32,000 nt of DNA from an uncultured bacterium. GTDB lineage: Bacteria > Babelota > Babeliae > Babelales > Babelaceae. The notes beneath the pieces are model-generated. The model saw only the letters and a program-made list of their open reading frames with translations. It ran no database searches and was not told the DNA's origin. A program made the translations under genes and the position numbers. The stretch lies in assembly GCA_963824495.1 (NCBI GenBank), contig CAWGPQ010000006.1, forward strand, positions 10,596 through 42,595. The letters run 5' to 3'. This document shows positions 163 through 23,904 of this stretch, one piece after another; the first letter of the stretch is position 1; every line of letters starts with the position of its first letter.

Positions 163-1095
163 ATGCATTATATACCATTAGGTCTTAAGTTTACTCTTAT
201 GGTGGCCATAGCAGGTTCACCGATCGTTAGCGCAAAGCAACATGATGGCTCATTCGTTTATGTTGATTTTGATATTGCTATGAGCAATCACCTTACGCCT
301 GGTAAGCGAAGTAGTCGATTAGATTACTCAAGTAACCTAAAGCTGATCAAAATTTGCAAAAAGTTATACACAACGTATAACCCCCAACGAATGCAAGCTG
401 CTTTATCTCAACCATTAAAAATCCCTAAAATTATCCACCAAATTTGGCTAGGTGGTCCTGTTCCTGAAAAATACACTAACTATCGCCAAAGCTGGATTGA
501 TCATCATCCTGACTGGGAATATAGGCTTTGGACTGATGCTGATGTGGAGAGCTTTCAGCTTCAAAACAAAGAACTTTTTGATAAAGCTCGTAACTATGGA
601 GAAAAAGCAGATATTTTTCGTTATGAGATTCTCCATCGCTACGGTGGCCTCTACGTTGATATTGATTTCGAATGTCTTAAGCCTTTTGACGCATTACATC
701 ATTTTTACGATTTTTATGCGGGATTTGAACAAGAGGGACGCCATATGGAGCTGTGTAACGCAATTATAGGTACGTCACCCGGTAATGCCATAATCAAATT
801 ATGTAACAAGTCACTTAAAGAAGAAGGTGATTATAATGATGTCTTAAGTACCATTAAGCGAACAGGGCCCTATTACTTTACCGAATGTTTCATGAAAGCA
901 ATACAAAATTATAAAGGCAAAGCTCTGATTCTGCCCGTTAGTTTTCTCTATCCTGTTCCCATTAAACCAAAGGTTTATGTTACATTAGAAAGCGTTAAGC
1001 AGTGGATAAGGCCAGAAACTCTTGCTGTTCACTATTGGGCTGCAGGTTGGACAAAATCACCTAAATTAAGCAACTTTTATGAGGAGCACCTATGA
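163..1095 (+). CDS. GT32-type glycosyltransferase paralog 1 with N-terminal signal/anchor
   Basis: 310-aa ORF with AAGGA 8 nt upstream of the ATG. Motifs IPKIIHQIWLGG, HPDWEYRLWTD and YGGLYVDIDFECLKP (DXD) are typical of the Och1/Sur1/A4GALT-like 'Gly_transf_sug' region. Hydrophobic N-terminus ...MVAIAGSPIVSA. Confidence 0.85.
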   Translation: MHYIPLGLKFTLMVAIAGSPIVSAKQHDGSFVYVDFDIAMSNHLTPGKRSSRLDYSSNLKLIKICKKLYTTYNPQRMQAALSQPLKIPKIIHQIWLGGPVPEKYTNYRQSWIDHHPDWEYRLWTDADVESFQLQNKELFDKARNYGEKADIFRYEILHRYGGLYVDIDFECLKPFDALHHFYDFYAGFEQEGRHMELCNAIIGTSPGNAIIKLCNKSLKEEGDYNDVLSTIKRTGPYYFTECFMKAIQNYKGKALILPVSFLYPVPIKPKVYVTLESVKQWIRPETLAVHYWAAGWTKSPKLSNFYEEHL

Positions 1096-2030
1096 AGAAG
1101 CTATGTTTTTTTGTAAATTTAGTATATGTGCTCAATACACTACCGCATACCAACGATCTGCCCGAAGCTCATAGGAATTATTTACGACCATGGGTAAACT
1201 TTGAAAAATCAATGTACCACTATTTTACCACGCAAGATCAAAAGACTCCTTATTCCTCACAAGTCACTCCTGAATGGCACATCGTTAAAATGCTCTATGA
1301 GCGTAATAACCTTGGCACTATACAGCCCTCACCACAACCGAAAATTCCTAAAATCATTCACCAAATCTGGCTTGGTAGTCCATTGCCTAAACAATACAAA
1401 AAATATCAAAAAAGCTGGCGACATCACCATCCTGATTGGGAATATAAGCTTTGGACCGATGCCGATGTAGAGGCCTTCCAACTCCACAATAAAAAACTCT
1501 TTGATGAAGCAAAAAATTATGGTGAAAAATCAGACATCTTTCGTTATGAAATTTTGCACCGCTATGGCGGAGTCTATATAGATACTGATATTGAGTGTCT
1601 TAAGCCTTTTGATATTTTTCATCATTGCTACGATTTTTATGTTGGAACAACCAATCCTGGAACGCTAGAAATAAATAATGCACTTATTGGCTGTGCGCCT
1701 GGACATCCCATCATACAGCTTTGCATCGACTCACTCGGACAAGAAGATGACGCTAATAAATATAGTAATAACTATATTGTCAGCACATTTCAGCGAACTG
1801 GGCCTGCTTATTTTACAAACTGCTTTATGCAGCTAGCGGTGCAATGTGGTGGTACCGTTATAGCTTTCCCTGTGACATTCTTTTATCCCGTACCTAATCT
1901 TCTTGAAGGCTTAACAACTTTGCACAGTGTTAAAAAATGGATTAGACCTGAAACATGGTGTGTACATTATTCAGCACGAAGTTGGCAGAAGAAAGCAAAA
2001 AAATTACGATCACATCGCGGAAACTCATGA
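1092..2030 (+). CDS. GT32-type glycosyltransferase paralog 2
   Basis: 312-aa ORF. The start overlaps the upstream stop as ATGA (1092-1095). Motifs IPKIIHQIWLGS, HPDWEYKLWTD, YGGVYIDTDIECLKP. Confidence 0.85.
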   Translation: MKKLCFFVNLVYVLNTLPHTNDLPEAHRNYLRPWVNFEKSMYHYFTTQDQKTPYSSQVTPEWHIVKMLYERNNLGTIQPSPQPKIPKIIHQIWLGSPLPKQYKKYQKSWRHHHPDWEYKLWTDADVEAFQLHNKKLFDEAKNYGEKSDIFRYEILHRYGGVYIDTDIECLKPFDIFHHCYDFYVGTTNPGTLEINNALIGCAPGHPIIQLCIDSLGQEDDANKYSNNYIVSTFQRTGPAYFTNCFMQLAVQCGGTVIAFPVTFFYPVPNLLEGLTTLHSVKKWIRPETWCVHYSARSWQKKAKKLRSHRGNS

Positions 2031-2980
2031 TACACCTACAGCATACCACAATACGCACTCCATTAGTATGCGCATACCTCGGACTCACACTTGTATACTG
2101 TTGTGTAAGCGCACGCGACCATACCACCAGGAACACTGCTATGGTTGACGTTGTTGACTTTGATGTTTCAATGAGTAATCATATAACTCCCGGTGCATTG
2201 GCAAGAAACCCTTACAAACCTGAAGATTTTTCTCAATGGGAAATACTCAAAAGACTTTATATTACTTACAATCCTAACAATGTTAAGCCATCATCAGAGT
2301 TACGTATACCCAAAATTATTCACCAAATATGGCTTGGTAGCCACTTTCCTAAACACTATGAAAGATACCAAAAAAGCTGGCTTACTTATCATCCCGGCTG
2401 GCTTTATAAACTTTGGACTGACGCAGATGTTAAAAACTTTACCTGGTCCAACCAAAACAGCAAAAAGCTCTTTGACGATGCCCAAAATTACGGCGAAAAA
2501 TCTGATATTTTACGCTATGAGCTTCTCTATCGTTATGGCGGGCTCTACGTCGATGTTGATTTTGAGTGTCTCAAGCCTCTTGATGACTTACATTACTGCT
2601 ACGATGTATATGTTGGTATTGAGCAAGCTCAGCGATTAGAAATTAATAACGCGCTTATTGGCGCAGCACCTGAACATCCATTTCTTAAATTTTGCATCGA
2701 ATCGTTACGAGATCAAGGATCAAAGCGAGACTTCATGGCAATCATGCAACGCTCTGGTCCTGTATTCTTTACCAAGTGCTTTATGCATTGTATCGCATTA
2801 TACGAGGATAGCATGTTTGCCTTCCCTGTAAGCTACTTTTACCCCATACCTATAAAAACAGGAGCATATCATACGCTTAATCAGGTGGCTAACTACATAC
2901 AACCTGAAACGTATGCAGTTCATTACTGGAATTCAAGCTGGACATTACCAAGTGGCTTTGTAAAAGGATCGAAGAAGTAA
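2027..2980 (+). CDS. GT32-type glycosyltransferase paralog 3
   Basis: Track ORF 1955-2980. I place the start at the in-frame ATG at 2027, which forms an ATGA overlap with the upstream stop (2027-2030). That gives a signal-like N-terminus MIHLQHTTIRTPLVCAYLGLTLVYCCVSA. Motifs IPKIIHQIWLGS, HPGWLYKLWTD, YGGLYVDVDFECLKP. Confidence 0.8.
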   Translation: MIHLQHTTIRTPLVCAYLGLTLVYCCVSARDHTTRNTAMVDVVDFDVSMSNHITPGALARNPYKPEDFSQWEILKRLYITYNPNNVKPSSELRIPKIIHQIWLGSHFPKHYERYQKSWLTYHPGWLYKLWTDADVKNFTWSNQNSKKLFDDAQNYGEKSDILRYELLYRYGGLYVDVDFECLKPLDDLHYCYDVYVGIEQAQRLEINNALIGAAPEHPFLKFCIESLRDQGSKRDFMAIMQRSGPVFFTKCFMHCIALYEDSMFAFPVSYFYPIPIKTGAYHTLNQVANYIQPETYAVHYWNSSWTLPSGFVKGSKK

Positions 2981-2983
2981 TTT

Positions 2984-3829
2984 ATGCTCTGTGTCACCCT
3001 TATCTTTTGTATGCTCGGCTTAATCCAGCCTATACTGCTCTGTGCCGATTTTAATACTTCAGACTTTGAATCTCTTAAAGACAACTATAACTATATCTAT
3101 AAGCACAATAGTTCTAGTTCTTTACAAGTGCGCATACCCAAGATTATTCACCAAATATGGCTTGGCAGTCCCTTGCCGAAACGTTTTAAAAAGTATCAAA
3201 AAAGCTGGCTTATACATCACCCTGGCTGGCGCTATAAACTCTGGACTGATGCTGATATTAAAAACTTTACCTGGTCCAACCAAAAGAGTAAAAAGCTCTT
3301 TGACGATGCCCAAAATTACGGCGAAAAATCCGATATTTTACGCTATGAGCTTCTCTATCGTTATGGTGGGCTCTATATCGATGTCGATTTCGAATGCCTC
3401 AAGCCTTTTGACAATCTACATTGTTGCTATGATTTCTATACAGGCATATCTAACACAGCATCACTCGAGCTTAATAACGCGCTTATAGGCTCTGCTGCCG
3501 GTCACCCTATTATGAAACGTTGTATAGAAGATCTTGAAGATACAGGCTCAAAAACCGACCTTATGGCTATTATTGAGCGTACTGGTCCCTTATACTTTAC
3601 ACGCTGCTTTCTTAATTATGCCCAAGAAGCAGATAAAAAAATGCACGAAAAAATAATAGCTTTTCCGCAGAGCTTCTTTTACCCAATACCTAATACTATT
3701 TCTAAAATATGCACGCATGATGAGCTCGAGCATTGGCGCCAACCGGAAAGCTATGCAGCTCACTATTGGGCATGCAGTTGGCAAAAACCTTCCGCTTTTA
3801 TATCAAAAAAAAGGAATATCTTATCATGA
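2984..3829 (+). CDS. GT32-type glycosyltransferase paralog 4
   Basis: 281-aa ORF starting 3 nt after the upstream stop. Hydrophobic N-terminus MLCVTLIFCMLGLIQPILLCA. Motifs IPKIIHQIWLGS, HPGWRYKLWTD, YGGLYIDVDFECLKP. Confidence 0.85.
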   Translation: MLCVTLIFCMLGLIQPILLCADFNTSDFESLKDNYNYIYKHNSSSSLQVRIPKIIHQIWLGSPLPKRFKKYQKSWLIHHPGWRYKLWTDADIKNFTWSNQKSKKLFDDAQNYGEKSDILRYELLYRYGGLYIDVDFECLKPFDNLHCCYDFYTGISNTASLELNNALIGSAAGHPIMKRCIEDLEDTGSKTDLMAIIERTGPLYFTRCFLNYAQEADKKMHEKIIAFPQSFFYPIPNTISKICTHDELEHWRQPESYAAHYWACSWQKPSAFISKKRNILS

Positions 3830-4713
3830 AGAATTATGGACCTTTTATCACACTCTGTTGTATGGTACTTTTAGCGTATACCCATGAAATTGCACAGGCT
3901 AGGCCACGAGTAAGCATTATAACATCGGTTAAATTTGGCGGTGACTTTATCAAGGGATTCATGGAAGATATTACACGTCAGACTATCTTTGATGACTGTG
4001 AACTTATTATGATTAATGCTGATTCCCCTGATAATGAAGAAGATACTATTAAAGAGTATGTGAAACGCTATCCCAATATTATTTACAAAAAACTTTCCTA
4101 TGATCCCGGCCTGTATGGCGTTTGGAATTTAGCAATCAGCATGTCAAAAGCAAACTTTATTACGAACGCCAATCTTGACGATAGGCTTGCCCCCCATTCA
4201 CTTGAATATCGAGCTCGAGAACTTGAGAATAATCCACAAGCTGATCTGGTCTATTCAAATGCATACGTTACCTACAAACCGAATGCAACATTTGAAGATC
4301 CTGCCGTCGCATGGGTATGGGTAAAGGAAGAATTTTCCCGATCAGCAATGTTCCATTGCCTACCAGGAAGCTATCCTATGTGGCGCACATCATTACATAC
4401 AAAAGCTGGCCTCTTTAATGCAGCATTTAAGCATTCTGGTGATTATGAAATGTGGTTACGAGCTGTAAGCAAGGGATGTGTATTTAAAAAATTGCCAGAG
4501 GTTACTGGTCTTTATTACTTTAACCCCAAGGGTTTATCAACTAATCCAGCATATAAGAAAGCAGAAGTTGAAACTGCTCTTCTACGACAAAAATACAGTT
4601 ATTTCTGGGAACCGCCAAAGAAACAGTCCCCTAAAAAGCCATCCAAGCAAAAGCCTATTAAGCAGAGCAATAATCACCCTATAAGTTTACGCTTTTCTGC
4701 TAAGAAGACGTGA
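3826..4713 (+). CDS. GT2-family (GT-A fold) glycosyltransferase with signal/anchor and a Lys/Pro-rich C-terminal tail
   Basis: Track ORF 3733-4713. I use the ATG at 3826 (ATGA overlap with the paralog 4 stop; AAGGAA upstream). N-terminus MKNYGPFITLCCMVLLAYTHEIAQA. Then VSIITSV...ELIMINADSPDNEEDTI...NANLDDR, a typical GT2 nucleotide-sugar binding core. Tail PPKKQSPKKPSKQKPIKQ. Confidence 0.75.
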   Translation: MKNYGPFITLCCMVLLAYTHEIAQARPRVSIITSVKFGGDFIKGFMEDITRQTIFDDCELIMINADSPDNEEDTIKEYVKRYPNIIYKKLSYDPGLYGVWNLAISMSKANFITNANLDDRLAPHSLEYRARELENNPQADLVYSNAYVTYKPNATFEDPAVAWVWVKEEFSRSAMFHCLPGSYPMWRTSLHTKAGLFNAAFKHSGDYEMWLRAVSKGCVFKKLPEVTGLYYFNPKGLSTNPAYKKAEVETALLRQKYSYFWEPPKKQSPKKPSKQKPIKQSNNHPISLRFSAKKT

Positions 4714-5658
4714 ACCCCAATCAATATCCCAAATATCTAAATCAGCAAAATGCTTTCGCCCGTACTGGTTAAACCATGAAAGTATCTGCTTTTCCCGCCA
4801 GCGCTCTGCACTGGCAAAGACTTTTGGTGCAAAAAATGTATAACCTTCAAACCAAGCTCGAGGGGCAGGCTCAAGATGAATATCCCGTTCATCCTTGCTA
4901 GGGGCATATCTTTTGTTAATTGCACGAGCTGATTTTTTTGGATCACGTATGCGTTCTAGGCAACGATACCATGCTTGTTTAACCAATAGATTGCGCCAAT
5001 TAACAAACTGAAAGTGTATAAGACCATGCGTATATCCCTCAATAACGTGTCGTTTGCCATTAAGAAAATTTGGTACACGTGACGTATGAATAAAACCAGA
5101 ATCATAGCGTGCTTTTGTATCATCACAAAAGATAATATCTTTGTAATTCCACGTCCAAACAGACCCATCAAATCGATAATAATCAATGCTGCGCCATAAA
5201 TGAATCCAATTAACCATCAGAATATCACCTGGCTTTAGGCTCAGGATACGTTTTCTTAAGAACTGCTGATCGAGGCAATTAGAGGTAAACATCTCATCAG
5301 CATCAATAACGATAAAATGAGTTCCTCCAAGCTTACGCCCTGCTTGCAATAAAGCGTTTCTATCGCCCGGTTCGTCACGATACCAATGAGACTTAGTGAT
5401 AACATGCTTTACTTTACAGTCTTTAGCACATCTCTTAACAATCTTCACCGTATTATCAGTTGATGCATCATCCAAAACAACGATAGCGTCAGCATACAAA
5501 GCGAGAGCTTTTAAACTCTGCTCAATAATTGGTGCTTCGTTTCTCACCGGCATAAGGCCAATAATTTTGGCAGCCGACGCTTTTACTCGAGTAAAAGCTT
5601 GAACATTCATAGCACCCATCCAACAAGACAAGAAAAAAATTAAGAATATATGCCCCAT
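4687..5658 (-). CDS. GT2-family glycosyltransferase with signal/anchor
   Basis: Track ORF 4687-5682 begins at a GTG. The ATG at 5658 is preceded by AAAGGAG. N-terminus MGHIFLIFFLSCWMGAMNVQA. Then GLMPVRNEAPIIEQSL...VVLDDASTDNT...FIVIDADEMF (GT2 DxD-type core). The 3' end overlaps the convergent GT2 by 27 bp. Confidence 0.75.
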   Translation of the reverse strand: MGHIFLIFFLSCWMGAMNVQAFTRVKASAAKIIGLMPVRNEAPIIEQSLKALALYADAIVVLDDASTDNTVKIVKRCAKDCKVKHVITKSHWYRDEPGDRNALLQAGRKLGGTHFIVIDADEMFTSNCLDQQFLRKRILSLKPGDILMVNWIHLWRSIDYYRFDGSVWTWNYKDIIFCDDTKARYDSGFIHTSRVPNFLNGKRHVIEGYTHGLIHFQFVNWRNLLVKQAWYRCLERIRDPKKSARAINKRYAPSKDERDIHLEPAPRAWFEGYTFFAPKVFASAERWREKQILSWFNQYGRKHFADLDIWDIDWGSRLLSRKA

Positions 5659-5808
5659 AACTTTAGCTCCTTTCTTTATCACATGATTATGTTAAAAAGA
5701 TAAAATATCCTTTAGCACATCGTCAACCTATCAACCTAAGAATTTGACACTTCAGTGTGATTTGTGGTTTTCTAAAAAAAATTATCTAATAAGAAGAGGA
5801 AAAAAGAT

Positions 5809-6753
5809 ATGGAGCACATACAAAAGATTACGTCAGGCATTCAGCGTTATGTCATACTGTTGTTTATAGTACTTGAGTTGTTTAGTGTTACACATGTACG
5901 GGCAGCTTGGGTCGACTTTGATCAAGCGATGGGAAAACATCTTAAGATTAACCCAATGGTCCCTCTGGACGAATATCAAAGAAGAAAGCAATTTTATAAA
6001 GCACTTTATAATAAAAATAATTTAGCAAAAGTTAAACCTCAAAACAACCCCAAAATACCCAAAATCATTCATCAAATCTGGCTTGGAAGTCCTTTTCCTG
6101 AAAAATTTAAGCCACTGCAAGAAACCTGGATTACAAAACATCCAAGTTGGAAGTATATTTTATGGACTGACGAATCGGCCAAGCAACTTAAGCTGTGGCA
6201 CAAAACATGGTTTAAAAAAATTAAGAATCTAGGATTTAAGGCTGACCTATTACGCTGCGAAATACTTTACCAGTATGGCGGACTCTATATTGATGTTGAC
6301 TTTGAATGCGTAAAGTCATTTGACCTATTACATCATTGCTACGATTTTTATGCTGGTTTGCCTCGTAATCAAACTGATATGGATATCGCTAATGGTTTAA
6401 TTGGTTCTAGAGCAGGACATCCTATTTTAAAAAATTACTTAAAGACTGTTGGCGTGCATCTTGAAAAATACTTTAAGACTCATTCTCGGCAAACAAATGA
6501 TCTTATGAACGTTGTTGGATCCCCTGCCTTATCCAATTCTGTACGAAAAGTAACTAAACTTAACGATCCAACAAGTATCACCGTCATTTTTCCCGTGAGT
6601 TTCTTTTACCCGTGGTTTCATATGTATGGTATTGAAGCCAAGCATTGGCAAGGAGCACTTGGTATACACAAGCGCAAAGATATTTATCGTATCCTTAAAC
6701 CTGAATCGTTTGCACTTCATTACTGGGGAGGGACCTGGGAAAACAGCTGGTAA
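5809..6753 (+). CDS. GT32-type glycosyltransferase paralog 6 (more divergent)
   Basis: 314-aa ORF with AGAGGA upstream. IPKIIHQIWLGSPFP, HPSWKYILWTD, YGGLYIDVDFECVKS. Hydrophobic segment YVILLFIVLELFSVTHVRA. Confidence 0.85.
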   Translation: MEHIQKITSGIQRYVILLFIVLELFSVTHVRAAWVDFDQAMGKHLKINPMVPLDEYQRRKQFYKALYNKNNLAKVKPQNNPKIPKIIHQIWLGSPFPEKFKPLQETWITKHPSWKYILWTDESAKQLKLWHKTWFKKIKNLGFKADLLRCEILYQYGGLYIDVDFECVKSFDLLHHCYDFYAGLPRNQTDMDIANGLIGSRAGHPILKNYLKTVGVHLEKYFKTHSRQTNDLMNVVGSPALSNSVRKVTKLNDPTSITVIFPVSFFYPWFHMYGIEAKHWQGALGIHKRKDIYRILKPESFALHYWGGTWENSW

Positions 6754-6812
6754 TCCTGGATCTCCCGTAAATTGGAAAAAGTTCCTTAGTTCGCCACAAG
6801 AGGAAAATTACG

Positions 6813-8186
6813 ATGATAGTAACGATTAATACACCAAACATATCCATAACAAGCATATTACTCTTACTAGTCTTTTCTATAGCATATACACTTCAGCCAA
6901 TCCCTCCTCTACCTCAACCTTTTGATAACACACTAAGACGTTCCGATACTCCTGCCATCATTACTTATAAAGCTATTGATTTGGTCAATAAATTTAGATT
7001 GGATATAATGGCTAAGTACATTTATGCAAAGCATAGAGAAATGAACGTAAAAAGTGATTGGGGTCTGCGAGTATACAGCGAGCATCTTCATGTTTGGAAT
7101 AATTACTACGAAGCAAGTAATCCTGCCAAGAACAGCCTTAGTGCATATCTTAGAGCATTTCACAAAACACTTGATTCAGTAAAAGCCCAGGGATTTTCAG
7201 CAACTACATCACTTGTTCCATTAGGCCTGCGATCTATCGATGATGGTGCGCATAGAGTAACTGCGTGCTTACTCTATAACAAAGATGTACTTTGCAAGCA
7301 AACTGATAATCCAGGACACGATGCTTCATCACACTTTTTTAGAAATAAGCGAGATTACGTTCCAACCGGTCTTGCTGAAAAATATCTTGACGCAATGGCA
7401 TTAACCTATTGTGAACTCAAGGAAAATACTGCTATCGTTGTAATTTTCCCTCGGGCTATTAAAGACAATCAACGAATTAAAAAAATACTCCAAAACTATA
7501 TGCATAGCATATATGAAAAAGAGATTACGCTGAAAGCTTCAGGTCCCCGTAATTTTATTAGGAACTATCTGGAAGCCTCCAGCAAAGTAAACCAATGCTT
7601 TACTCAGAACCGTACTCATTCGTGGACTATTCATGTATTTCTTGTTGAAATACTTAACCAATCACTTATGCAGAAAGCCAAACAAGAAATTAATGACGCT
7701 CTCGGTATTTCGCAAGCAGTGCATGTAACAGATGGTCATGATGACACTCTAAAATTAGCACGGGCTGTTTTTAACCAAAATAGTATACATTTTCTTAATA
7801 ATGCCAACTCTAAAGATTTTAAAAACTTCAATGATTTTTTTACTATTTATAAAAACTGGCTTGATAGAAACTCTTTTGATAAAGAGTGCTTTTGCATAAC
7901 TGGTGATGCTGTACTGGCAGCATATGGTATACGTGACTGTCAACAACTTGGTTTTATACATCACGGTTACAATAACCAATGCTCGATCGAAATAAGCTCA
8001 ATAACTGACAACAATAGCGATGCTTATTATCGTACAATGAGTAAAGACAACATACTATTTAACCCAGAAAATTATTTTTATTATCGTGATATAAAATGTG
8101 CTGCTTTGCATGTCGTTAGAAACATGAAAGCCCGACAGACCAACTTCCGATATTTTCAACCTTATGGAGACCCTCAAGAGGGATAA
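6813..8186 (+). CDS. Hypothetical 457-aa protein, N-terminal TM/signal segment, possible ParB/sulfiredoxin-like 'DGxHR' motif
   Basis: Long ORF with GAGGAAAATTACG before the ATG. N-terminus ISITSILLLLVFSIAYT. Motif SIDDGAHRVTACLL resembles the ParB/Srx-fold DGxHR signature. I recognise no family for the rest. It sits between glycosyltransferases and the flippase. Confidence 0.55.
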   Translation: MIVTINTPNISITSILLLLVFSIAYTLQPIPPLPQPFDNTLRRSDTPAIITYKAIDLVNKFRLDIMAKYIYAKHREMNVKSDWGLRVYSEHLHVWNNYYEASNPAKNSLSAYLRAFHKTLDSVKAQGFSATTSLVPLGLRSIDDGAHRVTACLLYNKDVLCKQTDNPGHDASSHFFRNKRDYVPTGLAEKYLDAMALTYCELKENTAIVVIFPRAIKDNQRIKKILQNYMHSIYEKEITLKASGPRNFIRNYLEASSKVNQCFTQNRTHSWTIHVFLVEILNQSLMQKAKQEINDALGISQAVHVTDGHDDTLKLARAVFNQNSIHFLNNANSKDFKNFNDFFTIYKNWLDRNSFDKECFCITGDAVLAAYGIRDCQQLGFIHHGYNNQCSIEISSITDNNSDAYYRTMSKDNILFNPENYFYYRDIKCAALHVVRNMKARQTNFRYFQPYGDPQEG

Positions 8187-8260
8187 GATAGCGTACCATA
8201 CACGACCGTGAGCTTAAGCCTCACCTGACCTGCAAAACTAACACAAAATACAAATCAACT

Positions 8261-9577
8261 ATGGGTATTACAAAGCCTGCTTGTGCTCGATATTTTCACA
8301 TACATGATAGCGTAAAAAAATTTGCTATTTACTGCTTGAGCTCAGCAGTACTCAAAAGCACGTCTGTTATGTTACTGCCTCTCACGCTCCACACATTAAA
8401 CCCTCAAGATATGGGTATTCTTTCGCTTGCCAATAGCTTTATAAGTATTGTCTCAGTACTTATGGGATGTGGTTTACGCCAGGTATTCTGGCTCGATTTT
8501 TTTCACCTCAATCAGCACAATCGTAATGAGCTGCTTGTCGATATTATAGCAGTTTATTGCGTACTCAGTCTTACAAGCATGCTCCTATTAATACTCAACA
8601 TAAGTTTTATTAATAGCTATATTTTTTTACTAAGTGCTTCACCTTTACTTATCATGCTCATTCTTACAATCTGCTTTTTCAGTTTTTTTGCTGAATTATT
8701 ATATCAAGTGCTTATATATCAGGGGCAAGCATGGGCGCTATCACTTGTTCAGCTTGCTGCCACTCTTATTTCAACAAGTACTATCCTTATAAGTCTACGC
8801 TATTTCGCTGGAGGTGTGATGCTCATTCTTATGGCAAACTTGCTCGGTACGCTTTTCGTGTCGATCATTGCTCTTGGGCTATTTCTCAAAACATCACTTA
8901 TTAGCTATTATAGCATTGGTCGATTACGCACAAGTTTTTTTTCATATATCAAGCGTGGACTGCCCTTTATACCCTCGGTATTGAGCGGATGGATACTAGC
9001 ATCAAGTAACCGATGGATGCTTGCTCATTATACTTCGCTCGCTGATGTTGGTGTCTATTCTCTTACAGAAATGCTCACAAGCATTTTTCAGGTTTGTATT
9101 CTTTACCCAATCAGCGGAGCATATTTACCCTCCCTCATGCAAGCTTTTGCTCAACACCCCAATAATATACATAACATCGACGCCTATAACAAAAAAATTA
9201 TGGCTACAAGCATGCTTGGCTTGAGCACAGGTGCCTGCTTGGGCTTTGTTGTAGGAAAAAGCTTACTATACCACTTTTTACCAAAAGCTTATTATCAAGC
9301 AATACCCTATCTTCTTATTACTGCGCTGGGCAATATATTTCTTATGGGTACGTATTTTAGCTCATGTAGTATTCAATTCTATAAAAGAACTACTTTTTTA
9401 GCTGGATCGTTAACATCCTCTGCAATGCTTACCCTTACACTGAGCGCTCTGCTTATCCCCCGGTACGGCTTGGGGGGTTCAGTAATTTCGCTTACATCGG
9501 CCTATACAGGTTATTTTTTTATAACGCTTGCATATAACCAATGGCTCCACATAGAAAATAAAAATTACTATATATAA
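8261..9577 (+). CDS. Wzx-like polysaccharide/oligosaccharide flippase (MOP superfamily) membrane protein
   Basis: 438-aa ORF that is hydrophobic throughout, with about 12 predicted TM stretches by eye. The N-terminal pattern (K.STSVMLLPLTLHTLNPQDMGILSLANSF) and its location in a sugar locus fit Wzx-type transporters. Confidence 0.6.
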   Translation: MGITKPACARYFHIHDSVKKFAIYCLSSAVLKSTSVMLLPLTLHTLNPQDMGILSLANSFISIVSVLMGCGLRQVFWLDFFHLNQHNRNELLVDIIAVYCVLSLTSMLLLILNISFINSYIFLLSASPLLIMLILTICFFSFFAELLYQVLIYQGQAWALSLVQLAATLISTSTILISLRYFAGGVMLILMANLLGTLFVSIIALGLFLKTSLISYYSIGRLRTSFFSYIKRGLPFIPSVLSGWILASSNRWMLAHYTSLADVGVYSLTEMLTSIFQVCILYPISGAYLPSLMQAFAQHPNNIHNIDAYNKKIMATSMLGLSTGACLGFVVGKSLLYHFLPKAYYQAIPYLLITALGNIFLMGTYFSSCSIQFYKRTTFLAGSLTSSAMLTLTLSALLIPRYGLGGSVISLTSAYTGYFFITLAYNQWLHIENKNYYI

Positions 9578-9660
9578 GTAGTATTGCAATTATATATTTA
9601 CAAATAGTAAACTAATAATAGAGCAAAATAAACTCAAAAAGTAACATTAAAGGAGATAGC

Positions 9661-10299
9661 ATGAAAAATATACGTATTGCCTTAGGCATCGCAATTCTTA
9701 CAAGTTTTAGTCAGTATTGTAGCGCTTATACCTGGAATGTAATAAATCTGACTGGTCAATCTGCAAACATTAAAATTAAGCCTGCATGTGTGGGAGAGGG
9801 TCCTTGGTCAAACGTGCCACCTTCGCCCGACTTGAAGCATCCTGTGAGAGTTCCCTTAAAGGCTCAGGAGGGTTGCTGTATTGCTGGTGTACAAGTAGAT
9901 GGAAAAGATGTTGATCTTAGGGCAATAACGAATGATCAATTGGCTAAGCTTATGTATATCTCTCCACTCCTGGGCATTGGAGGCGCTACTGCCGGTGCCA
10001 CTGCTGAGATTGTAGCTGGCTTTACGGCTGGAGCTGGTGTAGCAAGTGCAGCTGCCCCTATTGTAGCTGCAGTTCCTCCTATCGCAATAGGAGCAGCCCT
10101 AGCCGTAGTGGGAGCGGGAGCAGCAATTGGCATAACTGAAGCCATCGATAGATGCAAGAGCCGTGATCTTGTTGTAGGAACCGATGGTGCCTATCTGGTA
10201 ATAGAATCAGCTGAGGCAGTGGCTCACAAGGCAGTAAGCGAAACTCGTGAGTTTTTTGGGAAAATGAGAGGAAAGGTTCAAAGCCTTTTTCATGAATAA
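9661..10299 (+). CDS. Secreted Gly/Ala-rich protein, tandem family member 1 (long C-terminal variant)
   Basis: AAAGGAG RBS. Signal peptide MKNIRIALGIAILTSFSQYCSA, then YTWNVINLTG, CCIAGVQVDG, a variable G/A/P-rich hydrophobic tract, GITEAIDRCKSRDLVVGTDGAYLVIE, and the tail SAEAVAHKAVSETREFFGKMRGKVQSLFHE. Confidence 0.8.
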   Translation: MKNIRIALGIAILTSFSQYCSAYTWNVINLTGQSANIKIKPACVGEGPWSNVPPSPDLKHPVRVPLKAQEGCCIAGVQVDGKDVDLRAITNDQLAKLMYISPLLGIGGATAGATAEIVAGFTAGAGVASAAAPIVAAVPPIAIGAALAVVGAGAAIGITEAIDRCKSRDLVVGTDGAYLVIESAEAVAHKAVSETREFFGKMRGKVQSLFHE

Positions 10300-10756
10300 A
10301 CTAGAGTTCCCGCTCAGACCTATGACGAGATATTAAAGAAACGTGGAATTCACTGGCAATAGAGGCACTTCTAGCTGCCGCAGGCATAGGTACAGCATTT
10401 GGCATAACAGAGGCCATTGATAGGTGCAAAAGCCGTGATCTTATTATAGCAAGTGACGGTTGCCTATCTTGCGGTAGAAAAGAAACAAGAACAGGACCAA
10501 GGAACTGAATAATTACGATTAGATAAATCTTAAAAAAATAATATTTTACTATTATTTAGCTAAATTAAAACTTATTATTGCAGTTCAGCATAAATATTTG
10601 TTATTGTAGTATTAAGTAAATCAAAATAAAAGAAGGAAAGTAAAATGAAAAATACACGTATTGCTTTAGGTATCATAATTCTCACAGGTTTTAGTCAGTA
10701 TTGTAGCGCTTATACTTGGAATGTAATAAATCTGACTGGTCACCCTGCAACTATTA
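10120..10756 (+). repeat. Direct repeat copy A (637 bp, 100% identical to 11140-11776)
   Basis: Base-by-base comparison of the two blocks. The first mismatches are at 10119/11139 and 10757/11777. The repeat spans the 3' end of member 1, the relic, the AT-rich spacer and the first 112 nt of member 2. Confidence 0.95.
10326..10512 (+). pseudogene. Frameshifted 3' relic of a family member (short 'VVEKKQE' C-terminal type), copy 1
   Basis: No start codon. Reads ...IEALLAAAGIGTAFGITEAIDRCKSRDLIIASDG. An extra T at about 10461 then shifts the frame. The corrected frame gives AYLAVEKKQEQDQGTE*, matching the ends of members 3 and 4. Confidence 0.7.
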
Positions 10757-11319
10757 CGATTAAGCTTGTAGGATGCAAGGGCGACGGCATTTCGCAGCAA
10801 GTTCCACCCGCTGATTTGAAACATCCTAGTGGGAAAGCCTTTACCCCAACCAAAGAATACCAGCAAGTTTGCTGCATTGCTGGCGTACAAGTTAATGGAC
10901 ACGATATACCCTTTAAAGCACTAACGGACGAGCAGTTCGAAAAGCTAAAAACCGTCACGTTACCCGCAGGTTTGCTTGGTGGTGCAGCAGTTGGTGGTCC
11001 TGCTATTATCAGCGGTCTTTCTGTGCTTACCGGTGCGACTGCTGCGGCTGCAGTTGGACTTTCGGGTATTGAAACTGCAACTACGTTTGTAGCACCACCG
11101 GTTGCGATAGCAGGGGCTCTTGTCCTGGCAGGCGCAGGGGCAGCAATTGGCATAACTGAAGCCATCGATAGATGCAAGAGCCGTGATCTTGTTGTAGGAA
11201 CCGATGGTGCCTATCTGGTAATAGAATCAGCTGAGGCAGTGGCTCACAAGGCAGTAAGCGAAACTCGTGAGTTTTTTGGGAAAATGAGAGGAAAGGTTCA
11301 AAGCCTTTTTCATGAATAA
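10645..11319 (+). CDS. Secreted Gly/Ala-rich protein, tandem family member 2 (long C-terminal variant)
   Basis: AGAAGGAAAG RBS. Same signal peptide/YTWNVINLTG head and an identical 3' module to member 1. The unique variable core is 10757-11139. Confidence 0.8.
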   Translation: MKNTRIALGIIILTGFSQYCSAYTWNVINLTGHPATITIKLVGCKGDGISQQVPPADLKHPSGKAFTPTKEYQQVCCIAGVQVNGHDIPFKALTDEQFEKLKTVTLPAGLLGGAAVGGPAIISGLSVLTGATAAAAVGLSGIETATTFVAPPVAIAGALVLAGAGAAIGITEAIDRCKSRDLVVGTDGAYLVIESAEAVAHKAVSETREFFGKMRGKVQSLFHE

Positions 11320-11776
11320 ACTAGAGTTCCCGCTCAGACCTATGACGAGATATTAAAGAAACGTGGAATTCACTGGCAATAGAGGCACTTCTAGCTGCCG
11401 CAGGCATAGGTACAGCATTTGGCATAACAGAGGCCATTGATAGGTGCAAAAGCCGTGATCTTATTATAGCAAGTGACGGTTGCCTATCTTGCGGTAGAAA
11501 AGAAACAAGAACAGGACCAAGGAACTGAATAATTACGATTAGATAAATCTTAAAAAAATAATATTTTACTATTATTTAGCTAAATTAAAACTTATTATTG
11601 CAGTTCAGCATAAATATTTGTTATTGTAGTATTAAGTAAATCAAAATAAAAGAAGGAAAGTAAAATGAAAAATACACGTATTGCTTTAGGTATCATAATT
11701 CTCACAGGTTTTAGTCAGTATTGTAGCGCTTATACTTGGAATGTAATAAATCTGACTGGTCACCCTGCAACTATTA
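11140..11776 (+). repeat. Direct repeat copy B (637 bp, 100% identical to 10120-10756)
   Basis: See copy A. This copy spans the 3' end of member 2, relic copy 2, the spacer and the 5' end of member 3. Confidence 0.95.
11346..11532 (+). pseudogene. Frameshifted 3' relic of a family member, copy 2
   Basis: Identical to 10326-10512 because it lies inside the 637-bp repeat. Confidence 0.7.
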
Positions 11777-12189
11777 AAATTAAGCTTGCAGGGTGCAAGG
11801 GCGACGGAATTTCAAATCCTGATTCACCTCACAAGAACCCTATACCACCTTCACCTGATTTGAAGCATGCTGTAAAGATCCCCTTCACCGCAGAAAAAAG
11901 GTACCAAAAAAATTGTTGCATCGCGGGAGTCCAAGTTAATGGAAAAGATGTTCACTTTAGTGCCATATCAAAAGAGCAATTTCGCTTAGTCCCATCTATC
12001 TCTGGCCCAACCTCATTTGTTGCTGGTGTTGCAGCGGAGGCAGAGGCGGCAGCGATTCCATTAGCGACTGCGGGCGTAGGCGCAGCATTTGGCATAACAG
12101 AGGCCATTGATAGGTGCAAAAGCCGTGATTTAATTGTCGCAACTGATGGTGCCTATCTTGTGGTAGAAAAGAAACAAGAAGCTGCCTAA
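11665..12189 (+). CDS. Secreted Gly/Ala-rich protein, tandem family member 3 (short C-terminal variant)
   Basis: The 5' 112 nt are identical to member 2. YTWNVINLTG, CCIAGVQVNG, GITEAIDRCKSRDLIVATDGAYLVVEKKQEAA*. Confidence 0.8.
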   Translation: MKNTRIALGIIILTGFSQYCSAYTWNVINLTGHPATIKIKLAGCKGDGISNPDSPHKNPIPPSPDLKHAVKIPFTAEKRYQKNCCIAGVQVNGKDVHFSAISKEQFRLVPSISGPTSFVAGVAAEAEAAAIPLATAGVGAAFGITEAIDRCKSRDLIVATDGAYLVVEKKQEAA

Positions 12190-12229
12190 TATTGGGAACA
12201 AAAACTGAATAACTTAAAAGGTTAATACG

Positions 12230-12814
12230 ATGAAGATAAACTTATTAATGACGCTCGTCATCGCAACTCTTATAGGTTTTAGTCATTACTGTAGCGCTTA
12301 TACTTGGAACGTAATAAACCTAACGGGTATACCTTTAAATATTAAGATTAAGCTTGATCGATGTAAGGGCGAAAATCCTTGGAAAAACGTTCAGCCTTCA
12401 TCGCTAGCTAATCCAAAGGGGATTCTTATAACTCCAAGTAAACCATACCAACAAGGTTGCTGTATTGCTGGTGTACAAATAGGTATACCAGAAAAAGGCA
12501 CAAATACGATAAGGTGGAAAGACATTGAGTTTAAGGCTATATCACATGATCAATTGACTAGGGTCATGGCTTTACCTGGGGGTATTACTGGAGCCACAAC
12601 TATTGCAGGTCCAATAGAACTTGCAGCACTAGCTGAAATACCTGTTGCAGCTGCCGCTTTACCTGTAGCTATGCTAGGGACACTCCTATTTGCTGCAGGC
12701 GCAGGCGCAGCATTCGGCATAACAGAAGCAATTGATAGATGCAAAAGCCGTGATCTTATCGTCGCAAGTGATGGTGCCTATCTTGTTGTAGAAAAGAAGC
12801 AAGAAGCTGAATAA
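12230..12814 (+). CDS. Secreted Gly/Ala-rich protein, tandem family member 4 (short C-terminal variant)
   Basis: Signal peptide MKINLLMTLVIATLIGFSHYCSA, YTWNVINLTG, CCIAGVQIG, G/A-rich hydrophobic tract, GITEAIDRCKSRDLIVASDGAYLVVEKKQEAE*. Confidence 0.8.
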   Translation: MKINLLMTLVIATLIGFSHYCSAYTWNVINLTGIPLNIKIKLDRCKGENPWKNVQPSSLANPKGILITPSKPYQQGCCIAGVQIGIPEKGTNTIRWKDIEFKAISHDQLTRVMALPGGITGATTIAGPIELAALAEIPVAAAALPVAMLGTLLFAAGAGAAFGITEAIDRCKSRDLIVASDGAYLVVEKKQEAE

Positions 12815-12833
12815 TACCGTCAAGAAATACAGA

Positions 12834-14621
12834 TTATTTTGTACTTTTCTTATCGTGATCTTCGGGCATAAGCTGAAGACGATAGTCAGCAAGTTTACGA
12901 GCGTTAACAGGTGTAGGAGCATTCATAAGAGGATCATAGCCTGTTTGCGTCTTAGGAAATGCAATAACATCACGTATCGATGGACACTTCAGCAAGAGCA
13001 TGATTAAGCGATCAATGCCTAATGCAATACCCCCATGCGGAGGAAAACCAAGTTCTTGTGCTTCTAAAAGAAAGCCAAAATGATCACGCATTTCAGTCTC
13101 ATTAAAACCAAGAAAATCAAATACTTTGCGTTGCGTTTCAGGGTTATAAATACGTATAGAGCCACCACCTAATTCTACGCCATTAAGCACAATATCATAA
13201 GAGCGAGCCTTTATATCTTGGGGTTTCTTAAGCTCCCAATCTTCTTGTGGTGCAGTAAAAGGATGATGAACAGAGGCCCATCTCTTAGTTTCAGTGTCAT
13301 ATTCGAGTAATGGGAAGTCAGTTATCCATAAAAGCCGTAGCTGGTCATGAGGTATCCGATTAAGTGCATGAGCAAGCTGTAGACGCAGGCGGCCCAAATG
13401 TGTCCAGGCTTCTTTATAGGGGCCGGCGACTAAGAATAACGTATCGCCTGGTCCAACGCCAGGGAGAACTGTTGTAACCAATTCTAAAAAATGAGCGGGA
13501 AGGAAACGCGCTATCGGTGCTTCAGCGTGACCTTGCTCGTTAAAGCGAATCCAGAGCAATCCCTGTGCACCATTTTTACGTGTTTTTTCTACCCATGACT
13601 CAAGTTCTGAGCGGCTAAAGGGATGCTTTTGTATATGTAGAGCACCTATAATACCACCCTGATTAAGAACAGAGCGTAAAAAGCTTATATTCGTATCGCT
13701 AAATACTGTACTCAAATCATGAATTTTCATCTCAAAGCGCACATCAGGCTTATCTGATCCATATAGATTAAACGCTGTATCATAGGTCATACGTTGAAAG
13801 GGCGCGTGAATTTCGATATTAAAAATTTTCTTAAAAATATAGACAAGTAAGCGCTCAATAAGTACTTGAATATCAGCTTCGTTTATAAATGACATTTCAA
13901 GGTCAAGCTGGGTGAACTCAGGCTGTCGATCCGCACGTAAATCTTCGTCACGAAAGCAACGAGCAATTTGAAAGTAACGTTCAATGCCCCCAGCCATTAA
14001 AAGTTGTTTATAGAGCTGAGGTGATTGCGGTAGTGCGTAAAACGAGCCTTTAGCTATACGCGAAGGAACTAAAAACTCACGTGCTCCTTCGGCAGTATTT
14101 TTCGTAAGAATAGGCGTTTCTACCTCGTAGAATCCCTCATGAGTTAAAAATTCACGTATCGCAAATACCAAAAGATGGCGTGTTTTTATGCGGTACTGCA
14201 TAAGAGGTCTGCGCAAGTCCAAATAACGATATTTTAATCGTAGCTCTTCATCGACAGCGTCAGCATCTTCAAGCGCAAAGGGGAGAGTTTTTGACTTATT
14301 ATATATTGTAAGTGTTTGCACTTGTAGTTCAAGAGCACCTGTGGGAATCGTAGGATTAATAGTGTCAAGTGGTCGCAGAGCAACGGTACCGGTAACGCCT
14401 ATAACATATTCTGAGCGTAAGGTGTGAGCGAGTGCACGAGCATCAGCTGAAAAATCTTTGCTAAACACAACCTGCATAATACCGCTACGGTCACGCAAAT
14501 CGACAAAGATAAGGCTACCATGATCACGTCGCTTTTGAACCCAACCGACTAATGTAATTGCCTGACCTAACATCTGCTCAGTAACTGTACCGCAGCCCGT
14601 AGTGCGCTCAAAGTAGTCCAT
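12834..14621 (-). CDS. aspS: Aspartyl-tRNA synthetase
   Basis: GWVQKRRDHGSLIFVDLRDRSGIMQVV (OB domain), FRDEDLRADRQPEFTQLDLEMSF (class II motif 2), GGGSIRI, GIALGIDRLIMLL (motif 3). I place the start at MDYFERT (ATG 14621, AAGGGAA upstream) rather than the track start at 14657. Confidence 0.93.
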   Translation of the reverse strand: MDYFERTTGCGTVTEQMLGQAITLVGWVQKRRDHGSLIFVDLRDRSGIMQVVFSKDFSADARALAHTLRSEYVIGVTGTVALRPLDTINPTIPTGALELQVQTLTIYNKSKTLPFALEDADAVDEELRLKYRYLDLRRPLMQYRIKTRHLLVFAIREFLTHEGFYEVETPILTKNTAEGAREFLVPSRIAKGSFYALPQSPQLYKQLLMAGGIERYFQIARCFRDEDLRADRQPEFTQLDLEMSFINEADIQVLIERLLVYIFKKIFNIEIHAPFQRMTYDTAFNLYGSDKPDVRFEMKIHDLSTVFSDTNISFLRSVLNQGGIIGALHIQKHPFSRSELESWVEKTRKNGAQGLLWIRFNEQGHAEAPIARFLPAHFLELVTTVLPGVGPGDTLFLVAGPYKEAWTHLGRLRLQLAHALNRIPHDQLRLLWITDFPLLEYDTETKRWASVHHPFTAPQEDWELKKPQDIKARSYDIVLNGVELGGGSIRIYNPETQRKVFDFLGFNETEMRDHFGFLLEAQELGFPPHGGIALGIDRLIMLLLKCPSIRDVIAFPKTQTGYDPLMNAPTPVNARKLADYRLQLMPEDHDKKSTK

Positions 14622-14675
14622 TGAGTTCCCTTTATCAAGAGCTAGAGATAAACACATAATAGTTTATCATGAAAG

Positions 14676-16790
14676 TTAAAACTTGTATTCAACACCTATA
14701 CTTAACGTAAACGCTGGATCATGACCTAATATAGCAACTCGCTCTGCAGGCTTACGCTTATCTTTCTCGATATTGTTTTTTCCACCATCCAAATACTCGA
14801 TATACTTCTCCTGAGCTTTATTAAGCGGAACATGCCTCATATCTCTAAAATGAGAGCCAGGAATAAAGAGCGATCCAACAAAAAAGAACTTAAGATCATC
14901 AAGCAATAAACGTTCAGCAAATAAGTTAAGCTCTGTGCCCAAAAATTTTCCTGCAGTTTTAACTGGTGATGCTCTTTTATGATCACTATGTGCATCAGCT
15001 TCAAGAAGATCAAATCTTCTGGTAGGAGCATATTGCCAATAAGCAAGAATATTAGGATTAACTTCAAAGGGATACTTGCCTGCAGGTAATTTAAAGTAAA
15101 GCCCAGCGCCCGTAAAAATTAAATTCATAAAGCGCACAACGACGGTAGGAAAATGATCATCAAGTTTTCCTACGGGAACCGAGAGTAGTCGTGGAACTTT
15201 GCCACTTCCACTCAAGAAGAAAGCACTTTTTACGCGAAGACCGGTATATAATTCCTGTAGGCTAATAAAGCCCTTAAACTTTTTGTCTTCATGGGAATCA
15301 TGTAAATCTTTATGATCTTTATTAGGATGATCATCGCCTGTGGCAAATCCTGCTGTTACAGCAAGCTTAAGAGCCCGCTTATAAAGCCAATACGATATAT
15401 CACCAACAAACATTGCGCCGTGAAATGTATTACAATACGAATCAGTAAACCGGTGCTCAGCATTTTTAATGTGATCATGCCCGTACTCGGGGATTTTTTT
15501 CGCATTATGCTCTGTATCTTGAGGGGCGTTATTAATTACTTCCTGGCGCTCTTTTTTAAATATTGCTTTTTCACCCGGCTTATCTGGTTCAAGAGCATGG
15601 TCGGTGGCTAAAACGTGACTATTGACAAAGAAATCGGCGCCATCTCTGATCTCTTCGATAATAGTATTTCTATCGCGCTTCTTTACCTCTTGATTACCAA
15701 CATTAAAAGCAGTATCAAAACCAAATTCCCAGTTACCAAATTCTGCTTCAACAGCCAATCCAAGTGTACCTAACTTAGAATGTGCATCGCCAATAAATTC
15801 TATTTTTTGCTCACGTTGTTCTGTAAAAAGAGCATACGGTTCAAATGAAAGCTTTTTACCTGGTTCAGTAAACGGAAGCCAAAATAAACGTCCTGCAATA
15901 ATATAGTTAATTTTACCAAAACCACGTGCTGGATCAAACCGGGATCCAACTATTTGTGTTCTTACCCTCTCAGCTATATTATCAAGTGTATCGGCTCTAT
16001 TAAGCGCTATCTCTGCGTAGATATCGTATTTTATATTATATTTTTTCCAAAGATCGCCTGAGATCTTAAATCCTGGAGCAAACTGATCAATGGCATTAGG
16101 AGAATAATACCCAATAAAATCAGGATCGACACCGTAGGCAGATCCAAGTGCTATACCTCGCCCAAGTTCAAAAGGAAAGTATCCCATCGTTAACCGGTGC
16201 TTAGGCTCGCACGTAAGCCCTAGTATGTCATTAATAGATATCTCAAGCCATAGTTCACGAATCCAGAGCAAGTGTCGTGGTAAGAAGTGAAAGTGCTCAC
16301 CGCTGGTAGCCTCAAGATGTCTTATGCCCGTAAAGCTTGTAGCAAATATTTCAGGTGCTCCCCAATTAGCTTTGTTACGTATTGTACTCTTAAAGACAAG
16401 AACATCGCATCGATGCGACGCCCGACCGTAAATATACTGAAAATTAAAATCAAGAGTGTGACGACCGGGTATAAGTATGCGGTCAAGAATGGGCGATTTT
16501 ATGTTATTTTCATGATTTAAAAATTTAAGATTATTGGCATAAAGCCCATCAATGCGCAATTTCGTATAAAACTCCCAGCAGCTATCTCCCAAAACGCCTG
16601 AAAGTGGCATCTTCTTAATAGGATCTTTCGTTAGACTCAGAGCTGTCTCATCAGTAGTAAAAGGAGGTTTAATTTCCTCTTCGGTTACTGAAAGACGTTG
16701 ATTCTTGTCTGATGTTTGAGCACGCAATGAGCTTGCTAAAAAAACTCCACAAGTCACCGTGAATAGCCACAGTGACATACGCCTAATCAT
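14676..16790 (-). CDS. Outer-membrane beta-barrel protein (porin or alginate-export-like), family unassigned
   Basis: GAGGAGAATTT before the ATG. Signal peptide MIRRMSLWLFTVTCGVFLASSLRAQT. Alternating amphipathic/aromatic-rich sequence. The C-terminus ...LSIGVEYKF ends in Phe, as in BAM substrates. Confidence 0.6.
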   Translation of the reverse strand: MIRRMSLWLFTVTCGVFLASSLRAQTSDKNQRLSVTEEEIKPPFTTDETALSLTKDPIKKMPLSGVLGDSCWEFYTKLRIDGLYANNLKFLNHENNIKSPILDRILIPGRHTLDFNFQYIYGRASHRCDVLVFKSTIRNKANWGAPEIFATSFTGIRHLEATSGEHFHFLPRHLLWIRELWLEISINDILGLTCEPKHRLTMGYFPFELGRGIALGSAYGVDPDFIGYYSPNAIDQFAPGFKISGDLWKKYNIKYDIYAEIALNRADTLDNIAERVRTQIVGSRFDPARGFGKINYIIAGRLFWLPFTEPGKKLSFEPYALFTEQREQKIEFIGDAHSKLGTLGLAVEAEFGNWEFGFDTAFNVGNQEVKKRDRNTIIEEIRDGADFFVNSHVLATDHALEPDKPGEKAIFKKERQEVINNAPQDTEHNAKKIPEYGHDHIKNAEHRFTDSYCNTFHGAMFVGDISYWLYKRALKLAVTAGFATGDDHPNKDHKDLHDSHEDKKFKGFISLQELYTGLRVKSAFFLSGSGKVPRLLSVPVGKLDDHFPTVVVRFMNLIFTGAGLYFKLPAGKYPFEVNPNILAYWQYAPTRRFDLLEADAHSDHKRASPVKTAGKFLGTELNLFAERLLLDDLKFFFVGSLFIPGSHFRDMRHVPLNKAQEKYIEYLDGGKNNIEKDKRKPAERVAILGHDPAFTLSIGVEYKF

Positions 16791-23638: not shown

Positions 23639-23814
23639 AACTTTTCCTAGCAAAATTAAGAATCATTTACACCAGCACGCTTAGATAGCATAACAAAAAA
23701 ATGAGCAGATTGAAAGCCGGAGTATACACCTTTTGGGTAATCGTAAAAGTTGATAGTCCCAAAAAAGGTTTCAGTCTGTGTAAACACCTACTATTACTTT
23801 ATTATTAATACCGA

Positions 23815-23855
23815 TAGGTATAGTAGTAGTAGGTGAGGCACTTTTTTGTGGATAA
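23815..23855 (-). promoter_or_regulatory. DnaA box + GC cluster + trinucleotide (CTA)n 'DnaA-trio'-like unit
   Basis: The minus strand reads TTATCCACA (23855-23847), aaaaa, gtgcctcac, CTA CTA CTA CTA TAC CTA (23832-23815). An AT-rich tract follows: tattaataataaagtaatagta (23810-23789). Confidence 0.55.
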
Positions 23856-23904
23856 CTGGTCTAAAACGCACTCAATATATCGATTCAGTCGACCTTTGTT
23901 CATT

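Follow-up and report, generated by a model that had tools for sequence, protein, structure and literature searches.

A young, perfectly identical 637-nt repeat across the ends of adjacent paralogous genes in an uncultured Babelaceae bacterium, probably left by a single non-reciprocal recombination

Four paralogous open reading frames (ORFs) on the same strand, designated g1 to g4, formed a tandem array in a 32,000-nt stretch of DNA (the window, whose positions are used throughout) from an uncultured bacterium of the Babelaceae (GenBank assembly GCA_963824495.1, contig CAWGPQ010000006.1, positions 10,596 to 42,595). Two copies of a 637-nt direct repeat bridged the end of g1 and the start of g2, and the end of g2 and the start of g3. 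The repeat was probably (with a probability of about 0.8) produced by a single recent, non-reciprocal homologous recombination, either gene conversion or gap repair, in which the interval of the second copy was written over that of the first.

The base-by-base comparison of 10120-10756 with 11140-11776 showed 0 mismatches in 637 nt, the longest exact run at an offset of 1020, and the first mismatches outside the repeat were located at 10119/11139 on the left and at 10757-10758/11777-11778 on the right. The perfect 637-bp direct repeat with a period of 1020 bp and sharp edges, first reported in the initial annotation, was therefore borne out. Between 9500 and 12900 there was no other exact repeat of at least 50 nt, the next longest being one 47-mer and two runs of 26-28 nt. 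Each copy took in the last 180 nt of one gene (stop codon included) and the first 112 nt of the next, with a spacer of 345 nt between them, an anatomy that had also been described from the start and that the ORF coordinates confirmed: the g1 end (10120-10299), the spacer (10300-10644) and the g2 start (10645-10756) in copy 1, and, in copy 2, the final 180 nt of g2 with the spacer after it and the opening 112 nt of g3. The unique cores of the genes were only distantly similar: 57% identity between g1 and g2 (synonymous divergence, dS, of about 2) and 63% between g2 and g3 (dS of about 1.1). Since the cores were this diverged, and since the spacer had no counterpart downstream of g1 in the relative described below, a chance origin of the 637-nt identity was excluded. 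The initial statement that only the cores differ was correct as regards the cores, but the g1 head and the g3 tail, both outside the repeat, differed too (12 of 112 nt in the case of the g1 head with respect to the repeat head).

The spacer carried a relic of the same gene family. Its three-frame translation showed the frameshifted 3' end of a dead short-tail gene, reading ...AAGIGTAFGITEAIDRCKSRDLIIASDG, then a +1 frameshift, and then AYLAVEKKQEQDQGTE followed by a stop. Positions 784-916 of L001, one of the contigs of the relative, matched the 3' ends of the family, and L001 had an identical frameshifted reading (...CGRKETRTGPR); since the relic is also present in the relative, it is the record of an older rearrangement of the array. 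Direct reading of the sequence showed, 5 nt before the ATG, an RBS-like (ribosome-binding site) AAGGAAAG. Between 9400 and 13000 the promoter/terminator scan performed no better than on shuffled sequence, and no promoter is claimed within the repeat.

The relative was represented by two short contigs from JGI metagenome 3300079084, L001 (1328 nt) and L002 (1820 nt), with about 9% nucleotide divergence and a dS of about 0.2 with respect to the window. L001 was collinear with 10633-11909 at 88% and contained g2' and the start of g3', separated by a spacer in which the dead gene fragment was again present (primes denote the genes of the relative). L002 was collinear with 8825-10199 at 90% and contained the end of a flippase gene and g1', after which the homology downstream of g1 ended; the g1' protein (P0005) was collinear with g1 only up to 10199. 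The tail of g1' (EPIEGPKALARRALSGAQQLLGKIK) differed from that of g1 and was followed by a 55-bp spacer and by a further paralog, gX'. The best match of gX' in the window was only 78% (to g2), and gX' therefore has no orthologue in the array of the window. The start of gX' (L002 1504-1620) looked degenerate, with the MKN...signal-peptide reading broken and an ATG ORF crossing in another frame; gX' may be a pseudogene, or L002 may contain errors. The orthologue of g2 (P0002) was 86% identical to g2, and each core had its own orthologue in the relative, at about 92%. The dS values between orthologues were uniform (0.18-0.24) across the flippase and the compared parts of g1, g2 and g3, supporting one source genome for both contigs. 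The ratio of non-synonymous to synonymous divergence (omega) was 0.2-0.3 (0.28 for g1 before the repeat), and these genes are therefore functional and under purifying selection. As to whether the relative carries the same repeat with accumulated differences, which would have indicated an old duplication, there was no repeat at the g1/g2 position of the relative, showing that the identity is young and lineage-specific.

The comparison with the relative also gave the direction of the transfer. The repeat head (the first 112 nt of coding sequence) was 95.5% identical to the g3' head (5/112 differences) and 83.9% identical to the g2' head (18/112 differences), the heads of g2' and g3' themselves differing at 15 positions. 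The repeat tail was 91.7% identical to the g2' tail, and could be aligned with the g1' tail only across the conserved motif. The repeat spacer was 89% identical to the g2'-g3' spacer, vs. the 55 bp between g1' and gX'. The whole repeat matched L001 522-1195 at 91.0% (579/636 aligned positions). Because copy 2 lies in the ancestral g2'-relic-g3' context, and in copy 1 a tail of g1' type and a head of g2' type have been replaced, the direction is resolved from these alignments, with copy 2 (11140-11776) as the donor and copy 1 (10120-10756) as the recipient.

Four-way alignments located both ends of the tract. On the left, characters of the g1 lineage extended to 10119 and those of the g2 lineage began at 10135-10136, placing the end within 10120-10136; on the right, g3-lineage characters extended in g2 to 10743-10744 and g2-lineage characters began at 10757-10758 (ACG in g2 and g2' vs. 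AAA/AAG in g3 and g3'), placing the end within 10745-10757. Both ends were inside motifs conserved among all paralogs, the places at which homologous recombination is expected to be initiated and resolved. Three features of gene conversion were present: the paralogs were closer to each other over the tract (0/637 differences) than copy 2 was to its orthologous interval (57/636, or 9.0%), the tract ended sharply in pre-existing homology and was flanked by cores with a dS of 1-2, and the transfer was non-reciprocal, the donor being kept and the recipient overwritten, with one ambiguous site at 10125. The absence of differences between the copies gave a 95% upper bound of about 0.47% on their divergence; with respect to the 9.0% of the orthologous interval, this places the event in approximately the most recent 5%, or less, of the period that has passed since the two lineages split.

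The events can be pictured as follows. The segment formed by the g2 tail, the relic-bearing spacer and the g3 head would have been copied over the interval one gene upstream, either by gene conversion or by repair of a double-strand gap from a sister copy misaligned by one gene, presumably through a RecA-type route. The transfer would have started in the conserved C-terminal motif of g1 (GITEAIDRCKSRDL...) and finished in the N-terminal motif of g2 (...YTWNVINLTG HPATI). By this transfer g1 would have gained the last 59 codons of g2, including the predicted C-terminal helix, and g2 would have gained from g3 the upstream region with its ribosome-binding site, the signal peptide and the first beta-strand. 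The same gap repair may also have removed gX, if gX sat between g1 and g2 in the ancestor.

Some points weigh against this interpretation. The position 10125/11145 was ATT (Ile) in both copies and in g1', but TTT (Phe) in g2', g3, g4 and the relic, an exception that one substitution, or a short patch at the edge of the heteroduplex, may explain. The comparison used one relative and two contigs (1.3 and 1.8 kb), whose linkage and single-strain origin were assumed from their similar divergence, and the ancestral place of gX between g1 and g2 is an assumption only. The identity may also be a little less than perfect, if near-identical copies were merged by the assembler. The features of the array and of the repeat are summarized in Table 1.

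Table 1. Features of the g1-g4 array and of the 637-nt repeat, with the evidence on which each was defined.
Feature	Coordinates	Strand	Evidence
g1, 212 aa, chimera: own head and core, last 59 codons of g2	9661..10299	+	ORF; orthologue P0005 on L002
Repeat copy 1, derived (recipient)	10120..10756	+	Identity to 11140-11776; g1' tail/spacer and g2' head of the relative differ
Family-gene relic, copy 1 spacer	~10356..10512	+	Three-frame translation; repeat family D1; exact 47-mer common with g3 3' end
g2, 224 aa, chimera: ribosome-binding site region and first 37 codons of g3, own core and tail	10645..11319	+	ORF; diagnostic sites; orthologue P0002
g2 unique core, 383 nt, between the two identical repeats	10757..11139	+	92.2% identical to g2' core; 57%/63% to g1/g3 cores
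Repeat copy 2, ancestral (donor)	11140..11776	+	Collinear with L001 522-1195 of the relative
Family-gene relic, copy 2 spacer, ancestral location	~11376..11532	+	Also downstream of g2' in the relative
g3, 174 aa, short tail (EKKQEAA); head and upstream region are the donor	11665..12189	+	ORF; alignment; comparison with the relative
g4, 194 aa, 40 nt downstream of g3; outside the repeat event	12230..12814	+	ORF; alignment

The period of the repeat (1020 bp) corresponds to one gene plus its spacer, and arrays of this family recur, one of them with five copies (contig L004, described below). Both facts would fit the duplication of a 1020-bp unit in tandem by unequal crossing-over, with later divergence or replacement of the core, but this explanation is very improbable. 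A plain unequal crossover would leave the entire 1020-nt unit identical, and is ruled out on these grounds: 383 nt of the period were 57-63% identical, with dS saturated, vs. 0 differences in the other 637 nt, and no clock permits both; moreover, both cores have orthologues of about 92% in the relative and are hence older than the event. Of the very recent unequal crossing-over or gene conversion proposed in the initial annotation, recent conversion or gap repair is the part that stood, given the 0/637 differences and the relative without the repeat; the plain crossover did not, given the diverged cores.

The reliability of the assembly also bears on the number of copies. The window comes from a 171-kb contig (NCBI/ENA), a fragment of a metagenome- or MAG-type (metagenome-assembled genome) assembly, in which one true copy could have been threaded twice, or two merely similar copies collapsed into false identity. 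Full-length g1, g2 and g3 proteins were recorded only from this NCBI/ENA assembly and not from Logan, and the independent k=31 Logan assembly of run ERR11596056 failed to cross the region. The way in which it failed, however, argues for a real repeat. Two Logan contigs matched the window at 100%, one spanning 3337-10149 and the other 12100-16657; the first ended exactly 30 nt (k-1) into repeat copy 1 and the second exactly 30 nt inside the 47-mer common to g3 and the relic, which is the pattern expected of real repeats in a de Bruijn graph. In the reads, the g1 core led directly into the repeat, as far as the 30 nt that the Logan contig covers. The two copies differed in their left contexts (g1 core and g2 core) and in their right contexts (g2 core and g3 core), and core1-R-core2-R-core3 (R being the repeat) was the only graph path through all three cores; the deposited order is therefore parsimonious, as the only path using each core once with two left and two right contexts. 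Besides, among 5.8 billion collected proteins none from the sample had a g1'-type tail or was of the gX type, and duplication artefacts usually copy whole units, without chimeras. An assembly artefact is accordingly considered unlikely.

The array might instead be a programmed variation system, in which the repeats are held identical by selection or by frequent conversion, so that the cores of a surface or secreted repertoire can be shuffled, deleted or amplified. Conserved ends flanking a hypervariable Gly/Ala-rich middle, the dead gene fragment in the spacer (a sign of earlier rearrangements), a gene content unlike that of the relative (gX) and the occurrence of the family always in arrays would all suit such a system. 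However, the four genes of the array were complete, each having a start codon and a signal peptide of its own, and purifying selection acts on them (omega 0.2-0.3); the sole truncated copy was the frameshifted 3' relic, with no truncated silent cassettes besides it. Outside the repeat, the dS between paralog pairs in the conserved N- and C-terminal motifs was mostly 0.4-1.2 (10-19 synonymous sites); these motifs are therefore kept mainly by selection on the protein, homogenisation is infrequent and the array evolves divergently. The five-gene array of L004 had no identical tracts, and the window had no recombinase, reverse transcriptase or invertase. On this balance, programmed variation is quite unlikely. 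The 637-nt tract looks like an isolated recent event and not like pervasive homogenisation, although older short tracts may exist, given the few synonymous sites, and the ongoing gene conversion or concerted evolution initially suggested found no support in the dS values of the other paralog motifs. It is likewise improbable that the array is a recombination-driven variation locus of a new family of secreted or surface proteins, with repeats regenerated repeatedly, in this uncultured and possibly host-associated bacterium; if it were, the repeats would be the substrate to loop out, amplify and swap the Gly/Ala-rich cores, and cells would differ in their core repertoire.

Other kinds of element were considered and rejected. 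A diversity-generating retroelement was discarded on finding no reverse transcriptase domain in window ORFs of at least 110 aa, and repeats that were identical and not adenine-variant. A mobile element, integron cassette or phage-related origin was discarded since the unit was not bounded by terminal inverted repeats and no reverse transcriptase, transposase or integrase was found.

In the Neisseria pilE/pilS, Anaplasma msp2 and Borrelia vlsE systems, conserved flanks around a variable middle provide the homology for segmental recombination. The genes g1-g4 resemble these systems in having conserved flanks around a variable middle, but they lack the single expression site and the promoterless silent cassettes, all four genes being intact and under purifying selection, and the segments converted were the conserved ends and the spacer instead of the variable middle. 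The tufA/tufB genes and the rRNA operons are classic cases of conversion, upheld in the long term over whole genes. The tract described here would share with them a non-reciprocal, homology-dependent transfer leaving an identical, sharp-ended tract in otherwise diverged copies; unlike them, most of the array is diverging, with a dS of 0.4-2 outside the tract, which is a single occurrence.

The closest described parallel is found among the outer membrane protein (OMP) paralogs of Helicobacter pylori. According to PMC2795765, the 3' segment of the babA/babB and homA/homB genes is homogenised within a strain while the middle stays allelic, which is attributed to gene conversion; the Discussion of that paper cites Pride & Blaser 2002 and Santoyo & Romero 2005 on the conversion of paralog segments, the latter as cited there being a review of conversion between duplicated bacterial genes. 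In both cases, paralogs within one genome have a homogenised end segment and a diverged middle, attributed to intragenomic conversion. The H. pylori OMP genes are dispersed, whereas g1-g4 are adjacent and the tract crosses the spacer, joining a 3' end to the next 5' end, and also copies the upstream and ribosome-binding site region. The present case differs as well in being one event with 0 differences, and in that the g1-g4 proteins are unrelated to the porin-like Hop/Hom OMPs.

The proteins encoded by g1-g4 had a mean column identity of 64% in their alignment, and the 3' end of g4 was 85% identical to that of g3. All of them began with a Sec-type signal peptide ending in ...YCSA/YTWNVINLTG (the slash marks its end), followed by a region containing cysteines and an invariant CCIAGVQ motif, a hydrophobic Gly/Ala-rich stretch of highly variable length in the middle, and a C-terminal part with an invariant GITEAIDRCKSRDL..DGAYLV motif and a variable tail. 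The AlphaFold model, built from an alignment of 17 sequences (mean pLDDT, the predicted local distance difference test, of 68), showed a confident beta domain (residues 23-105) completed by two C-terminal strands (181-193), a low-confidence Gly/Ala-rich insert (107-151) and, in the tail that the repeat carries, a predicted C-terminal helix (196-222). The family consists of small proteins with a Sec signal peptide and a predicted cysteine-containing beta domain split by a hypervariable Gly/Ala-rich insert. Nothing above threshold was found for g1-g4 with Pfam, NCBIfam, PADLOC and PHROGs profiles or with the PDB sequence profile, and the Foldseek search of the model against the PDB gave nothing significant (best E = 0.47).

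The family was rare: 7 proteins were found among 5.8 billion, and the profile search of 1.84 billion representatives gave 21 matches, about 15 of them small proteins of identical layout. Scans of genome contigs (two) and metagenome contigs (one) with the family alignment detected no related locus. A distant member was found as a five-gene tandem array at 8687-11738 of metagenome contig L004 (JGI metagenome 3300066487), whose paralogs were 60-79% identical at the nucleotide level and had no identical tracts; tandem arrays are therefore typical of this rare, uncharacterised family and perfect tracts are not. Beside that array, on the opposite strand (L004 7158-8088), there were two paralogous genes for small signal-peptide proteins of another family without assignment. 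Five of the profile matches (P0019, P0020, P0022, P0025 and P0026) were longer proteins (538-1182 aa) made up of 5-9 tandem modules of about 55 residues (...ARFKEECCLRGLxLNGQQVTPE...), which matched the CC..G..VNGK part of the family profile (E 1e-4 to 1e-6). This likeness could reflect a shared small domain or a chance resemblance between motifs. None of the five had a significant Pfam match, P0025 alone showing a sub-threshold match to DMAP1.

The array is chromosomal. Upstream lay a Polysacc_synt-type flippase gene (8261-9577) and a glycosyltransferase cluster, and downstream lay the AspRS gene on the opposite strand (12834-14657), followed by genes for a 704-aa protein, IF-2, NusA, UDG, ComEC and MnmG. 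AspRS lay at much the same distance from the structures of Thermus, Pseudomonas, Mycobacterium and E. coli, an argument only against placing the bacterium in these well-sampled groups. Neither the Rfam nor the tRNA scan of the window gave a match. The cluster directly upstream of the array was a large polysaccharide/glycosylation cluster, with five paralogous DXD glycosyltransferase genes (Gly_transf_sug, weakly TcdA/TcdB-like; 163-3829 and 5809-6753) beside GT2, GT4 and GT61 genes and the flippase. Its internal repeats were 63-86% identical and none was perfect; Logan contig L005 began inside these paralogs, at 3337. The 704-aa signal-peptide protein (14676-16790, minus strand) and a 457-aa protein (6813-8186, plus strand) gave no significant match in Pfam, NCBIfam, PADLOC or PHROGs. 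Further downstream, between the nusA-like gene (22559-23653, minus strand) and the UDG gene (24164-24799, minus strand), eight TTATCCACA-like DnaA-box sites, four of them perfect, were found at 23847-24100, in two tandem runs inverted relative to each other (23905-23948 and 24057-24100). Cumulative GC skew across the window was lowest at about 21-24 kb, and the cluster is a candidate replication origin or DnaA-titrating site.

The recombination proposed here would have several consequences for the array. The genes g2 and g3 are now identical in their upstream region, their RBS-like sequence and their first 37 codons, and g1 and g2 end in an identical predicted C-terminal helix. Bracketed as it is by 637-nt direct repeats, the 383-nt g2 core would be liable to deletion or amplification through RecA; the initial remarks on a substrate for copy-number change and on an assembly hazard are both reasonable. 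Short-read and k-mer assemblies break exactly at this repeat trap, and the deposited copy number of the g2 core should be treated as provisional. Annotation and phylogeny of g1-g4 must also allow for chimerism: the C-terminus of g1, and the N-terminus and upstream region of g2, differ in history from the cores.

The significance of the case is modest: it adds one more example of a well-known process, in a rare, uncharacterised family, and nothing points to a new mechanism. Its interest lies in a cleanly polarised and dated conversion tract across an intergenic region, which rewires the regulatory and signal-peptide region of one gene and the C-terminus of its neighbour at once. The gene family, rare, arranged in tandem and without a fold match, may deserve study itself.

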